Source: Candidatus Dadabacteria bacterium
Lineage (GTDB): Bacteria; Desulfobacterota_D; UBA1144; Nemesobacterales; CSP1-2
Assembly: GCA_040289575.1 (NCBI GenBank)
Contig: PSLL01000016.1
Span: 1-10,664, forward strand
Direction: 5' to 3'
DNA length: 10,664 nt
Position numbers: made by a program. Of the stretch, positions 1 to 9,000 are shown piece by piece; position 1 is the first letter of the stretch; each line of letters begins with the position of its first letter.

Positions 1-3000
1 TGATAATACTCGTCTTATACCCAATTCTTGCTCTTCACAAAACAACGGATCGGACAAAGACGTATTTTTAGGAATCAGTTATATGCACCGTCTCTCTTTC
101 TTCTGCAATCCGATTTATTAAATTCGCTATGTAACCCGCTCCAAACCCATTATCTATATTTACAACCGACACACCTGGGGCGCATGAGTTTAGCATTCCC
201 AGAAGTGCAGAAAGTCCTTTGAAATTCGCACCATACCCTATGCTTGTCGGCACTGCGATTATCGGCTTAGAGAAAAGCCCCCCGACAACGCTAGGCAGAG
301 CCCCCTCCATACCTGCAACGACTACTATTACGGACGCCTTTTTAAAGCTCTCCGAGTTGCTAAACACCCTGTGGATCCCCGCCACACCAATATCATAAAT
401 CCTCTGTGTAAAACTACCCATCACCTCTGCCGTAACTGCTGCTTCTTCGGCAACAGGGATATCCGATGTCCCCGCTGAAACAACCAAAACATTGCCGATT
501 CGCCTATGGTCTTTAGGCAAAATATAAAAAGCCCTGGCGACCTCGTTATAAACACCTTCGGGAAACTCTTTTCTGAGCAGAACCGCCTTATAATGGGAGA
601 GCCTTGTTACAAGTACATTGCTCTCTTTTTCTCTCATAGCGCGGATAATCCGGGTAATTTTCTCTACATCCTTCCCTCGCCCAAAGACTACCTCCGGAAA
701 TCCCAATCTGAGTTCCCTATGGTGATCTATCTTTGAGTACCCTAGGTCCTCGTAGGGAAGCGTTTTTAGAACTCGAGCGGCTTCATCCACCGTAACGTTA
801 CCGGATTTTACGCTATTGAGAAGTTCCCTTAATCTCTTTTCGTCCATCCTAGGAAATGATGTCTTATGCAGGATTTATGATACAAGATGTTTTTTGTCCC
901 GTATCGCGCATCATGAACCTTAAAAAAACGAGGCAAGTATATCCGCTTCGCTAACCTTTGTGTCTTCAATGAAGGCTTCACCCCTCATCTTCCACATCTG
1001 GGCACGCCTCTTTAGGATCCAGACATTAAGCTTGACCTCCATACCAGGAAGAACGGGCTTTCTAAATTTTACATTCTCAAGCCCTACCAGAGCGGGTATC
1101 CTCTTGAATTCTGGGTCCGTGGCATATACCAAAATACCCCCCGCCTGAGCGAGGGCCTCAACTATTATGACTCCCGGAACAACGGGATTTCCAGGGAAAT
1201 GGCCTCTAAAAAACTCCTCTTGCGGCCTAAATCTCTTTATGGCAACGATTCTCTCCCCGGGCTCCATTTCAAGGACCCCGTCAATAAAAAGAAAAGGCTC
1301 CCGATGTGGAAGAAACCTTTTGATCTCCTCTTCATTCATTATCATGATTGATACCCAGTTCTGATGCGTATTGTTAAAATAATCAAAGAGAACACAGAAA
1401 ACCCATTTGGGCTATCGGTAACTCGGCTAAATACATCTCCAATCCGTTCAGACACGGCTATTTCTTTGAGCTTCCGGAGCCTCCTTTCTTGGCATCATAG
1501 GCCTGTATAATCTTGTCCGTTAAGTCCGCGTCCTTTGAGGCATATATAACCCCGCCCTCGGTTTTCTCAACTATTAATGTATATCCCCCGGAATCCCCTA
1601 TCTGCTGAACTACGCTCTCAAGCTCAGTCAGTATTCTCTGTGTAAGCTCAAAGTCACGCTTCTGAAGCTCGTCACGGAAGTCATCGCGCGTTCTATTGAG
1701 GTCCTTTTCCATCTTATCAAGCTCCTCGACCTTCTGCTTCCTCGCACCCTCGTCCATAACGGGAGCCTTAGATATAAAGTCCTGTTTCATACGGTTGAGC
1801 TCAGCGGTTCTCTGCTCAATTATCCTTCTTTTGTCCTGAAACTCCTTTTCAAAAGCGGCTTTAGCAGACTTGCCAGCCTGAGAGTCTCTTATAACGCGCT
1901 GAAGGTCTACATAGCCGATCTTCGCCGTCACTGATTGGGCATACGAAAGCCCTGAGGCTCCGATTATCAAGCCCATTAGCGTTAACAAAACGATCTTCAT
2001 TTCTTGCCTCCTTAAAAATAATTAATATAAAGTTCCTATGGTAAATTGTAATTGATACCGACCTTCCCCTGGAAGCCTAGTTCCTATTGGGAACCCTACC
2101 TCAAGTCTAAGCGGTCCCAGGGGAGAGAGCCATCTTATTCCGACTCCAAAGTCCTTTCTGAGGTCGCGAGGATTCAAGCTGAGTTTCTGATTATCATTAA
2201 AAACATTTCCAATATCGAAGAATACAACCCCTTTAAAACCCACCTGAGGTATAAGTGGAAATATATATTCAGCCGTACCAACGACCTTCTGTGTCCCACC
2301 TATGACTACAAAATCCCCGTTATCAGCTGGGACGCGGGGACCCACTTGCCTAAATGGAAACCCCCGTAAATCGTCAGGCCCCCCCAGGAAAAACCTCTCA
2401 GAAACAACAAGGTCATTTCCAGTATTTCTGAGATTAATCAATCCGTACTGCCCCGCAACTGAGAACACAGTTTTAAAGGGAAGCGGAAAGAAAAACCTCG
2501 TTGATGCCGTGTATCTTGTAAAATCTGTATTGCCGCCAAAAGGACCGGCAAACTCGATATTGGCTCTGCTTATGTTGCCACTTGACGGGTCCAATATATT
2601 ATTTCTAGAATCCCATATAAGACCAAACCCAACACTGCTTATATTTCTAGCGGATTCCGTGACTAGGAGCAAGGCCTTCCCGGATACATTACTTACATTT
2701 TCGTGCTCAAACCTATAAAAAACCCTGCCGCTTAAATCGCTTATAAGGTGTCGACCAAGGGCTAAACTGCCCCCAAATGTGTTCGTAGTGAAATCTAGGA
2801 ACTTCCTCTGTGTGTAGAATCCAAGAGCCTCAAGCGTAAATTGGCTATCTAGAAGATGAGGGTCCTGATAATCTATTATACCAAGCCTTGTAACACCACC
2901 TATTTGTGCAGAAAGGGACAGCGTTTTCCCGAGTCCAAAGAGGTTTGACTCCTGGATTTGACCAGCAAAAATAAAGGTCTCAACAGAGCTAAATCCTCCC

Positions 3001-6000: not shown

Positions 6001-9000
6001 GGCTAGTTCCAACCACACCTGGGAAACTCGCGACCTCTGCCCTTATTTTATCATAGTCTTTTATAGGACCGTCGTAACTCAGCACCACAAGATGGGAGTT
6101 TACACCCAGGATCTTGTCCTTGAGTTCCTCTTCAAACCCCCTCATTACGGCAAGAACGACGTTTAATGCCATAACACCCATAAATACGCCCAGAATAGAT
6201 ATAAGCCCTATGATTGATATAAACGTCTGTCTTCTTTTCGATCTCAGATACCTGAGTCCTATAAAAAATTCGTATTTCATTCGGGTCTAAGGTGTGGAAA
6301 GAATATTACTTCCCTTATAGAAGGAGAATTTGTAAGGAGCATAACAAGGCGGTCAATCCCAACTCCAGCCCCTGCGGTAGGGGGCATTCCGTATTCAAGC
6401 GCAGATATAAAATCCTCATACATCTCGTGGACCTCATCCTCGCCCCTGGATTTAAGGTCAATCTGTCTGAGAAATCTCTCTTTCTGGTCAATCGGGTCGT
6501 TAAGCTCGGAAAATGCATTTGCAACCTCCCGCCCGGCTATATAGAGTTCAAATCTATCTGCAACCTCAGGGTTCGAGTTGTTTCTCCTCGCAAGGGGGGA
6601 TACGTCAAGCGGAAATCCAAAAACAAATGTCGGACTGACAATCTCCAGACCAATCAATCGCTCAAATATCTCGATTATTGCCTTTCCTCTGATTCCCTTA
6701 TGATCAATGCCCAAAGATGCGGCCCTTTTAAAGAGCGCCTCATCGTTATTTAAGACCTCATCGCCGATTACACTTTTTAGGGACTCGATAATGCTAATTC
6801 TCTTCCAAGGACGCATCATGTTTATAGTCGTATTTTGATATGTAAATTCAAGTGTGCCGAGAACGCCTTGAGTAACAAAGCATATAAGCTCTTCGATTAA
6901 GTCCATCAAGTCCTCATAAGTAGCATAGGCTTGATAAAGTTCAAGCATTGTAAACTCCGGATTATGCTGAGTGGATATTCCCTCATTTCTAAAATTCCTT
7001 CCGATTTCATAAACCCTCTCAATCCCGCCGACTACAAGCCTTTTTAGATAGAGCTCAGGAGCAATCCTTAAGAAGAGCTCCATATCGAGTGCATTGTGAT
7101 AGGTCTTAAAAGGCTTTGCCGCAGCCCCACCCGCGATCGGATGTAGAACCGGTGTTTCTACCTCAATAAAGCCCCTCTCATCAAGGAACTGCCTTATGAG
7201 CTTTATGACCTTTGTTCTTTTAAGAAAAACCCCTCTTACCTCAGGGTTTGAGATTAAGTCCAGATAACGCTGCCTGAATCTGGTCTCTACGTCCTTTAGT
7301 CCGTGCCATTTCTCAGGTAGTGGGCGCATGGCCTTGGTAAGGAGTTTAAAGTCCCTTACATTCACTGTAAGCTCGCCGGTTTTTGTCTTAAATAGCTCGC
7401 CTCTAATCCCTATGAAATCCCCAATATCAATAAATCTCTTAAAAAGCCTCAAACTCTCATCACCCACAACGTCCCTACGTATATACCCCTGAATCTTTCC
7501 TGTTCTATCCATGATATGGAAAAACACGCTTTTCCCAAAATCCCTAAGGGCTATAACCCGCCCAGCAAATGAGAACTCCTGTGATAGATTTTTCAGTTCT
7601 TCCTCAGACAGGTTTCCATAAGAAGATAAAACCGTCTCGGATTCGTGAAGAGGCTTAAAATCATTTGGAAACGGGTCTATACCTACACTCCTTAGTTCGT
7701 CTATCTTCTCCTTTCTCTGTTCTATGAGTTCGTTTTCCATAGTTTGTATTTGCTCTACCTAAAAAGGAGAAATTGTCATGGATTGGAAAGGCCCCTTACC
7801 ACGGAGGATTGTGCAGGCAGGCTATAATCTCTTATCATCATCAAGAATTATATACGTTGCGGTCGCTTTTGCAATAAGCCTTTCTTTATTTGAAATATCT
7901 ATATCGACCGGGATTATCCTTTTTCCTTTCCTTATAATTCTCGCCTCAGCTTCCATTATGCCGTCTTTGACAGGAAGTAGAAAATTTATTTTCATCTCTA
8001 TTGTGACGAATTTCCTCTCAGGCTCAACCACCGATCCGATCGCAACGGCAGCAGCAGAATCGGCAATGGAGAAGAGCGCTCCACCGTGAATCAGACCGTA
8101 AGGTTGAGTGAGCCTCTCATCAAAAGGCATCACAAGCTTCGCATACCCCTCACCCATTTCGGTGACTTCTATCCCCAGCAGTTTCCAAAAAGGCGGCGGT
8201 GGAAATGGCATTTTAATTTCTTTTCTACGATACAAGTCAGCCATGAGTTATCTCCGTTGTAGAATTTAAAACTCATTATACCAGATAAACACCCGATAAC
8301 CTCACCTCTCCGAGCCCATAAGTTTAAACAAAGCGCTGGACGCTGGCGTTAGGCAGAAAAAATGATACAATACAAATGTGAAATGAAAATTCGATATTTT
8401 TCAGATACAGCGCTAATTGAATTCTCCGATGCGCCAGCAGTTGAAACAAAAGAAATAACGGAAAACCTTTTCGTTGACTTAGATGAAAATCGCAACCTTA
8501 ATAATCACGACTATTTGAGCATGCAAATCAGAATATCGTTTCTACAGATGGAAAAAGAGCTTACCTAACAAATCACTCTAGCCGACAGCGTAACCGTCCT
8601 GCATTTTTTCTGTGCTCTCTGTGATAAAATGTTTTTCATTTACTATCCCTCCCAAACACACTAAACGTAATAAAGCCAATTAAACAAACCCCGCCTGCTG
8701 TAAGATACATGATATGAAACCCCCAGAACTGGGCAACTAAACCATATATGAAGGAACCCAGCATTCCACCTAGGGTAAAAGCCACACTGCATATTGCAAA
8801 AGCCCTGCCCCTTTCCATAACCGGAGAAAGGTCAATTACAAGTGCATAGATTGATGGATAAACAAGCCCGTGACTCAATCCAAATAGAATACCAGTCTCT
8901 ATAAAATGGGCTACTCTTGATACAAAGTTTATCCCTATTATGCTAAGAGAGAAAAAAAGGAGGGCTGGTGTAGCGGTCCTCTTTTTTCCAAACCTATCGG

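Follow-up and report, generated by a model that had tools for sequence, protein, structure and literature searches.

The Dadabacteria appear, from their genes, to have lost lipopolysaccharide and its surface transport machinery across an entire phylum

The bamA cluster and its empty lpx positions

The window analysed here, a stretch of 10,664 nucleotides from a Candidatus Dadabacteria genome (G000 in the following), carries the gene order lysS-lolC-lolD-bamA-skp-fabZ, which leaves no space for lpxD, lpxA or lpxB. From upstream to downstream, its features are:

6277..7740, minus strand: lysS (PF00152), the conserved upstream anchor of the cluster
4976..6280, minus strand: lolC/E, lipoprotein-releasing ABC permease (TIGR02212, 399.7 bits against a cut-off of 362; FtsX and MacB_PCD)
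4300..4983, minus strand: lolD, ABC ATPase adjoining lolC (top family TIGR02211, 284.6 bits, slightly below the cut-off of 307.75)
2022..4310, minus strand: bamA, five POTRA domains and an Omp85 barrel (TIGR03303, 643 bits; Pfam)
1458..2000, minus strand: skp/OmpH periplasmic chaperone (PF03938, E 1e-31)
1346..1457, no strand: geneless skp-fabZ gap of 112 bp, the lpxD slot by comparison with the E. coli order
920..1345, minus strand: fabZ (NF000582, over cut-off)
848..919, no strand: geneless fabZ-larB gap of 72 bp, the lpxA-lpxB slot by the same comparison
68..847, minus strand: AIR-carboxylase-family gene (PF00731), not envelope-related, which we take to be LarB-like

In E. coli, the order is bamA-skp-lpxD-fabZ-lpxA-lpxB. 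The fabZ of the window is free-standing, without an LpxC fusion, and aligns to the model of the LpxC-FabZ fusion only from 320 to 458; lysS holds the same place in six of six other loci of the phylum. A preliminary description of this DNA had reported the cluster from lolC to fabZ as devoid of lpxD, lpxA and lpxB, and this order as typical of the phylum. Both statements hold: the genes lie where it had placed them, and all six further loci agree, which brings the lpx-free order to seven loci from six families.

LPS, Lpt and outer-membrane genes across the phylum

The phylum set comprised 120 genomes, 94 of which were good (at least 90% complete); E. coli baits were run on G000, G111 and the single-contig genome G028. 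On repeat search, LpxC was absent from all 94 good genomes and matched in one of the 120 overall, and this sole match, a 132-base scrap on an lpxC-lpxA contig in G119, proved to be Scalindua contaminant DNA. LptF/G likewise exceeded the cut-off in none of the 120 genomes; faint matches at E <= 0.1 occur in 26 of them, but these are short and are also given by Bacillus and archaea. Neither LptA/LptD-N nor LptD_2 reached its cut-off in any of the 120, the latter with a model that detected only one of 14 controls. By comparison, BamA, the positive control, was found in every one of the 94 good genomes and in 119 of the 120 overall, in most of them with E < 1e-130.

The E. coli baits retrieved no orthologue of LpxA, LpxB, LpxD, LpxK, WaaA, KdsA or KdsD, and no LptD, LptC or LptE, from any of the three genomes; a 25% kdsA match in G028 occupies the slot of the DAHP-synthase-like gene of G000, beside purN. 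No Lpt family emerged from a crude barrel screen of G000 or from Pfam scans of 107 selected secreted and membrane proteins of G111. A conserved, unnamed barrel of 540 residues was considered as a hidden LptD and rejected, as its modelled fold of about 18 strands appears to match AlgE, not LptD. These independent repeats, single-contig genomes included, support the earlier claim that the phylum as a whole is diderm and has no genes for lipid A, Kdo or Lpt. Judged from genes alone, the entire phylum thus appears to have lost LPS together with the machinery for its transport to the surface. As in the preliminary description, literature searching found no report of this loss, nor any of inositol lipids in the phylum, within a scope that left out Witwinowski 2022 and the genome paper on the sponge clade.

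The phylum carries the BamA and outer-membrane barrels expected of a diderm, with BamA in all 94 good genomes as well as porins, TonB receptor and TolC, which were found in G111 too. The full outer-membrane kit of the preliminary description is real for G000, which holds LolA, LolC/D, Lnt, TolQ/R/B and Pal, but cannot be extended to the phylum. LolA and Pal/OmpA were found in three of five genomes tested, G028 and G111 being the exceptions; TolB was not detected in these two, nor TamA/TamB in G111, and TamB is missing from all 19 genomes of the 1-Mb family f9.

The heptose genes raised earlier are a weak caveat. HldE, two GT9 glycosyltransferases and a KdsC-like protein are indeed present in G000, but all are absent from G111 and G028, so that no lipid shared by the whole phylum contains heptose. 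One of the GT9 genes sits downstream of pilin genes and an ABC transporter, a setting that fits protein or appendage glycosylation better than a heptose glycolipid. The KdsC-like protein reaches 82 of 107 bits and has NAD in place of the usual DxD motif.

Inositol-lipid genes and routes of lipid supply

The inositol-phosphate synthase Ino1 occurs in 116 of 120 genomes (93 of the 94 good ones) and in 32 of 32 genera; in three of three genomes read, its gene lies immediately downstream of rplM-rpsI. In G000, ino1 is located at C51:8682-10034 and the PIP synthase-like gene described next at C25:63793-64539. A phosphatidylinositol-phosphate (PIP) synthase-like gene is equally widespread (114 of 120, 93 of 94 and 32 of 32 genera), and the closest solved relatives of its product are the PIP synthases of M. 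tuberculosis and others (E ~1e-16). The inositol-phosphate pocket of PIP synthase includes R94, S132, Y133, R152 and R155 (PMC6506517), and three of three Dadabacteria sequences keep the equivalents of all five, along with D68, D71, G72, D89 and D93; the PgsA of G111 has K in place of R94. The positions of K135, R137 and P153 vary among the PIP synthase-like proteins, and the match to R195 was derived via the Renibacterium alignment. The G111 protein stays below all three PIP/AIP synthase cut-offs (134/180, 106/170 and 106/350 bits).

Canonical PgsA was over cut-off in none of 101 genomes of families f1-f8, eight of the nine families, with a model that found only seven of 14 controls; it is present in 15 of the 19 f9 genomes. 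The single-contig genomes G028, G052 and G089 have three CDP-alcohol phosphotransferases apiece, which in G028 are PssA, the PIP synthase-like protein and an AF2299-like one, and in the other two have lengths that fit this set. G028 also has Lgt, which normally uses phosphatidylglycerol (PG), and PG may therefore come from an unrecognised route. A core nucleotidyltransferase is paired with the AF2299-like gene (C20:2875-4983 in G000). Furthermore, a GT4 glycosyltransferase (C116:122038-123255 in G000) was found as a core gene in three of three and five of five genomes; it is without a close characterised relative (best solved match Alr3699, E 1e-20) and, like a flippase, is retained even in 1-Mb genomes. 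We regard the core inositol-lipid genes as a new, testable candidate for the replacement of LPS. As inositol lipids are also known from LPS-bearing Bacteroidetes (PMC9246714), their presence alone does not show that they replace it.

For the delivery of lipids, two genes show a complementary distribution. TamB is found in 97 of 120 genomes and a putative partner protein of MlaEFD in 76; at least one of the two occurs in 117 and neither in only three, and family f9, with TamB in none of its 19 genomes, has the Mla partner in 18. MlaD was found in five of five genomes tested. The Mla operon starts with this partner, an all-beta secreted protein of 460-500 residues that belongs to no known family. 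A fold search returned single-layer beta-meanders (best Z 10.3) ahead of LptC (Z 6.2), with no clear relative, and in the Atlas the protein falls into unnamed clusters only, whose sources include Verrucomicrobiota, so that it is not specific to the phylum.

An outer membrane of phospholipids and its alternatives

Given this gene content, we hold it to be rather probable that the Dadabacteria have a phospholipid outer membrane. In such a scenario, their common ancestor would have lost lipid A and Kdo synthesis together with the entire Lpt bridge, while retaining an outer membrane assembled by Bam. Glycerophospholipids would make up the membranes, with phosphatidylethanolamine made via PssA and Psd, and with phosphatidylinositol(-phosphate) as the main anionic lipid, made from Ino1-derived inositol-phosphate and CDP-diacylglycerol by a synthase of putatively mycobacterial/archaeal-type specificity. 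The core nucleotidyltransferase and AF2299-like phosphotransferase, the GT4 and the flippase probably supply a further or glycosylated head group for the surface. The outer membrane would receive its lipids through phospholipid transport, via TamB and/or MlaEFD with its long beta-meander partner.

A more far-reaching version, which we offer tentatively, is a previously undescribed type of envelope, with Bam and Lol but without LPS and Lpt, in which phosphatidylinositol replaces PG and the surface consists of a glycosylated inositol lipid. In f9, the sole route for lipids to the outer membrane would then be MlaEFD together with a beta-meander protein that spans the periplasm. Neither an Lpt nor an AsmA-like bridge was detected in this family, so that the route would have to run outward; the direction of Mla transport is debated (PMC10665443).

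Free-living diderm phyla without LPS are already known; what sets the Dadabacteria apart is that the entire Lpt bridge appears to be gone. PMC10665443 describes the Thermotogae and Deinococci as LPS-less diderms, unable to make LPS, and our controls from these lineages match the Dadabacteria in having a BamA-bearing outer membrane and lacking LpxC. However, Thermus, Deinococcus and Thermotoga are over the cut-off for LptA/LptD-N, whereas the Dadabacteria give no match. LPS-less lineages moreover tend to be without Mla (PMC10665443), unlike the Dadabacteria with their MlaD. Sphingomonas, with a glycosphingolipid outer leaflet, and Borrelia, with a lipoprotein surface, are further diderms without LPS (PMC13721041). 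Their losses are at the level of genus or family, and ceramide-type genes occur in only 27 of 120 Dadabacteria genomes. Both Sphingomonas and Borrelia probably reuse parts of Lpt.

The predicted inositol pathway resembles mycobacterial PgsA1 and archaeal AIP synthase with Ino1 in pairing Ino1 with a CDP-alcohol phosphotransferase that has the inositol-phosphate pocket residues. It differs in that the Dadabacteria protein stays below the curated cut-offs, that no phylum-wide PimA/PimB-like enzyme was identified, that G000 has no PF03279 acyltransferase, and that the pathway resides in a Bam/Lol diderm instead of a mycolate one. It likewise recalls the Bacteroidetes route through BT_1523/BT_1526 and a putative NTP-transferase, with MIPS, PIP synthase and an NTP transferase/CDP-alcohol phosphotransferase pair (PMC9246714), but the genes are patchy and clustered in LPS-bearing Bacteroidetes, whereas here they are core, dispersed and without PgsA. 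Finally, the long MlaD without MlaA or MlaC is reminiscent of the three-component MlaEFD of Veillonella, which operates alongside TamB; the data set of the Veillonella Mla paper includes one Dadabacteria genome, with three MlaD, two MlaE and neither MlaA nor MlaC. In contrast to Veillonella, the operon opens with the all-beta protein, and in f9 there is no TamB to oppose MlaEFD.

Among the alternatives, the one with some standing, though we think it fairly unlikely, accepts the same LPS and Lpt absences and treats the inositol genes as incidental, serving an inner-membrane anionic lipid or a solute pathway, beneath a Borrelia-like outer leaflet of plain phospholipid crowded with proteins or lipoproteins. 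The porins, TonB receptors and TolC even of G111 would suit it, the nucleotidyltransferase and its AF2299-like neighbour bear a likeness to the enzymes for the solute di-myo-inositol-phosphate as well (NF041135, below cut-off), and Borrelia is a precedent for an LPS-free, lipoprotein-coated cell (PMC13721041). It leaves the retention of GT4 and flippase in 1-Mb genomes unaccounted for, and a lipoprotein coat accords poorly with G028 and G111, where LolA and Pal were not found.

That another lipid took the place of LPS is improbable, and sphingolipids, ether lipids, hopanoids, ornithine lipids and heptosylated glycolipids are all disfavoured as phylum-wide replacements. In G000, a Spt/Kbl-family enzyme adjoins a GNAT that we take to resemble a bacterial ceramide synthase. 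This GNAT is, however, limited to 27 of 120 genomes, missing from both genomes of the same genus and from all of f7 and f9, fused to a Spt-like domain and located ahead of a sensor kinase, and the Spt model reaches 406/640 bits. The Ger/PlsA-type ether-lipid gene of G000 recurs in only six of 120 genomes, and the HldE and two GT9s that would favour a heptosylated glycolipid have the narrow distribution described above. G000 has no squalene-hopene cyclase, and the lone Acetyltransf_5 match for ornithine lipids sits in a 161-residue frame.

It is very improbable that profile searches missed a highly divergent lipid A/Lpt system: the LptD models are narrow, MsbA-like ABC pairs are core and the faint LptF/G matches exist, but several unrelated families would have had to diverge together while BamA remained readily recognisable, even a foreign 132-base lpxC scrap was detected, the two MsbA-like proteins, at 342 and 369 bits, fall well short of the cut-off of 602, and the syntenic slots are empty. 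There is just as little to suggest that the streamlined families f9 and f5 have kept little or no true outer membrane, with barrel genes as relics, as the undetected LolA, Pal, TolB and TamA/TamB might imply, since G111 and G028 retain full-length BamA, Skp, BamD, TolC, porins and MlaEFD, G111 a TonB receptor too, and unused genes would be unlikely to last in 1-Mb genomes.

LPS and Lpt are regarded as near-universal in Gram-negative bacteria. A phylum with neither of them, some of whose members have genomes of 1 Mb, illustrates how few components suffice for an outer membrane. It would test whether inositol lipids can replace PG and LPS, and what Lgt uses where PgsA is missing, while f9, a natural lineage with Mla and without TamB, offers a test of the direction of Mla lipid transport. 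Sponge associates occur among the members of the phylum, and in host-associated members the missing LPS would probably affect tolerance by the host.

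Absence of lipid A and Lpt genes

The window lies in a bin (G000) of 3.06 Mb and 95% completeness, and is organized as follows:

G000:C99:1-10664, minus strand: lysS, lolC/E, lolD, bamA, skp, fabZ and an AIR-carboxylase-family gene, in this order

While the order in E. coli is bamA-skp-lpxD-fabZ-lpxA-lpxB, the window has no lpx genes: skp and fabZ are 112 bp apart, and the gap after fabZ measures 72 bp. This order recurs in all six further loci that we read, from the Dadabacteria genomes G111, G028, G052, G089, G018 and G012, which together with G000 cover six families. The lpx-free arrangement described previously is thus borne out. 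For two marker proteins, homologues carry the source name Candidatus Dadabacteria, in line with the phylum label given previously.

We searched 120 genomes of the phylum, 94 of which have a completeness of 90% or more and no more than 5% contamination (‘good’ genomes in the following). The LpxC profile matched none of the good genomes and one of all 120. LptF/G was above cut-off in 0/120, and 26 faint, short matches at E <= 0.1 lie at a level at which Bacillus and archaea were also matched. LptA/LptD-N was likewise found in 0/120, as was LptD_2, a model that recognized only one of 14 controls. BamA, by contrast, is present in all 94 good genomes and in 119 overall, as the preliminary description had stated together with the absence of LpxC, LptF/G and LptD. 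The single LpxC match is located here:

G119:C175, a 2.2-kb contig: lpxC, lpxA and an oxidoreductase gene

Its LpxA shows 95% identity to proteins of Candidatus Scalindua. None of the proteins on this contig recurs in the related genome G111, with which the two large G119 contigs that were checked do share proteins. We therefore reject this lpxC as a gene of the phylum; the match is contamination, namely misbinned Scalindua DNA, and it shows that the search is sensitive to even a 132-base scrap. Separately, G000:C46:17000-26300 seems foreign to its bin in gene style and content and is a possible contaminant contig.

E. coli baits for lpxA/B/C/D/K, kdsA/D, waaA and lptA/C/D/E/F/G had no orthologue in G000, G111 (1.01 Mb, six contigs) or G028 (1.16 Mb, one contig), in which housekeeping baits from neighbouring genes did match; for these three genomes, this agrees with the earlier claim that LpxB, LpxK, WaaA and KdsA are missing. 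G000 also has no late acyltransferase of lipid A. A conserved, unnamed barrel of ~540 aa was considered as a hidden LptD and rejected, as its predicted fold is that of an AlgE-like porin (pLDDT 68). Lipid A and the Lpt system are very probably absent from the entire phylum.

Candidate lipids of the outer membrane

In a comparison of G000, G111 and G028, 700 G111 proteins had matches in both other genomes. These include an inositol-phosphate synthase (69-74% identity), which is located after rplM-rpsI and found in 116/120 genomes, 93/94 good genomes and 32/32 genera. A phosphatidylinositol-phosphate-synthase (PIPS)-like CDP-alcohol phosphotransferase of ~250 aa occurs in 114/120 (93/94 good genomes, 32/32 genera). 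It scores below the curated family cut-offs. Among solved structures, PIP synthases are its best matches, with S. aureus PgsA matching only at E 0.007. Of the inositol-phosphate pocket residues given for M. tuberculosis PgsA1 in PMC6506517, the equivalents of R94, S132, Y133, R152 and R155 (PgsA1 numbering) are conserved in 3/3 sequences and those of K135, R137 and P153 vary; for R195, we infer a match. Canonical PgsA is confined to 15/120 genomes, all from the ~1-Mb streamlined family f9, with 0/101 in the other families (f1-f8).

The single-contig genomes G028, G052 and G089 each encode three CDP-alcohol phosphotransferases, in G028 PssA, the PIPS-like protein and an AF2299-like fusion. This fusion and its upstream nucleotidyltransferase, present in 3/3 genomes read, resemble a putative CDP-inositol route, which PMC9246714 describes as proposed but unconfirmed for Bacteroidetes; their substrate may instead be choline or a phosphonate. 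One GT4 glycosyltransferase (3/3 and 5/5 genomes) and one MOP flippase (3/3) likewise belong to the core genes.

PG is the normal substrate of Lgt, and the occurrence of Lgt without PgsA counts against the inositol reading, as does the fact that Bacteroidetes carry inositol lipids alongside LPS. An inositol phospholipid is probably a main anionic lipid. As to the first acylation step of lipid synthesis, PlsX has no match in G028 or G111, a PlsY-like motif is lacking in both and in G000, and the baits used matched one PlsC-family acyltransferase in G028.

Two further glycosyltransferase loci were observed in G111. The GT4 at G111:C5:237302-238453, of which neither G000 nor G028 has a clear orthologue, has the phosphatidylinositol mannosyltransferase PimB' as its top solved match (E 6e-16), tied with BshA. 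An island at G111:C6:86000-127000 and L082:2447-4138, with no matches in G000, encodes seven or more multi-pass membrane proteins of the DUF6311 type along with GT2 glycosyltransferases, possibly for surface glycosylation.

Other replacement lipids are unlikely given their distribution, two of them represented by these loci:

G000:C99:38326-42964: Spt/Kbl-family gene with a GNAT partner, on the contig of the window
G000:C28:82690-88036: Ger/PlsA-type ether or plasmalogen lipid genes

For a ceramide-like lipid, the GNAT partner is found in only 27/120 genomes and is missing from both same-genus genomes and from families f7 and f9. The relatives that we read carry it as a fusion with the Spt-like domain (open frames of ~930 aa), immediately followed by a membrane sensor histidine kinase gene, an arrangement that resembles a signal-lipid synthase and its receptor; in G000, the region (G000:C99:33907-42964) is split by a porin gene. 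For a heptose glycolipid, G000 does encode HldE, a KdsC-like protein and GT9s, as noted earlier, the GT9s being two in number, but G111 and G028 lack all of these. At G000:C41:18878-26320, a GT9 accompanies two pilin genes, an ABC transporter and TPR/membrane proteins, which suggests pilus heptosylation. The ether lipid genes occur in only 6/120 genomes (families f1 and f2), and G000 has no hopanoid cyclase.

Routes of lipid transport

TamB is found in 97/120 genomes and in 0/19 of family f9, where most genomes have one Omp85 gene. AsmA is absent from 4/4 f9 genomes tested, and YhdP has no match in G111. G000, G111 and G028 share the operon alr-X-mlaE-mlaF-mlaD, which includes a protein here called X:

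G000:C101:17104-18570: X, ahead of mlaE-mlaF-mlaD; secreted, 460-500 aa, aromatic-proline repeats

X belongs to no Pfam or NCBIfam family and has relatives in Verrucomicrobiota clusters. Its predicted structure (pLDDT 90) is a meander of ~50 short strands, for which a fold search returned no clear solved relative; X may span the periplasm as a bridge. The MlaD of this operon in G000 bears repeated GT(L/I)G(K/R) motifs. X is present in 76/120 genomes, including 18/19 in f9 and 0/36 in genus g19; genera without X retain a second MlaD adjoining purH. Of the 120 genomes, 56 have both TamB and X, 41 only TamB, 20 only X and three neither, the latter being 83-92% complete. This distribution fits two redundant phospholipid routes, TamB and Mla with X, the second of which would be the sole recognized route in f9, with AsmA checked in four f9 genomes and YhdP in G111.

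Taken together, we somewhat favor a phospholipid outer membrane that contains an inositol lipid and is supplied by TamB and Mla. That Mla runs outward in f9 and that the surface lipid is a glycosylated inositol lipid is a tentative and rather doubtful extension.

A probable LPS-free diderm phylum

The complete outer-membrane kit described previously holds for G000 (LolA, Lnt, TolQ/R/B, Pal, CpoB, BamD, TamA/B) but not for the streamlined G028 and G111, where it is thinner: LolC/D and BamA are retained, no LolA, Pal or TolB was detected, and Lnt has no match in G028 with the G111 bait. Elsewhere in G028 (C1:580577-585003), we observed cas2- and cas1-like genes and a Cas9-like gene of 1062 aa, judged by eye only.

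Our literature searches yielded no account of a loss of LPS, or of inositol lipids, in Dadabacteria. The main text of a marine Dadabacteria preprint (10.1101/2020.06.22.165886) does not use the words lipopolysaccharide, LPS, membrane or lipid, and a 2026 review (PMC13721041) names Borrelia and Sphingomonas as LPS-free, but not Dadabacteria in the 300,000 characters searched. Since the supplement of an Mla survey contains one Dadabacteria genome, the envelope surveys of the same laboratory (Witwinowski 2022, Megrian 2020) may already record the absence in one of their figures or tables.

Diderm phyla without LPS are already known, as described in PMC10665443. Our controls Thermus, Deinococcus and Thermotoga have no LpxC, yet score above cut-off for LptA/LptD-N and so retain part of the Lpt bridge, whereas the Dadabacteria phylum lacks the bridge as well. 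This phylum-wide loss is the distinctive point: as probable LPS-free diderms, Dadabacteria go further than the control lineages.
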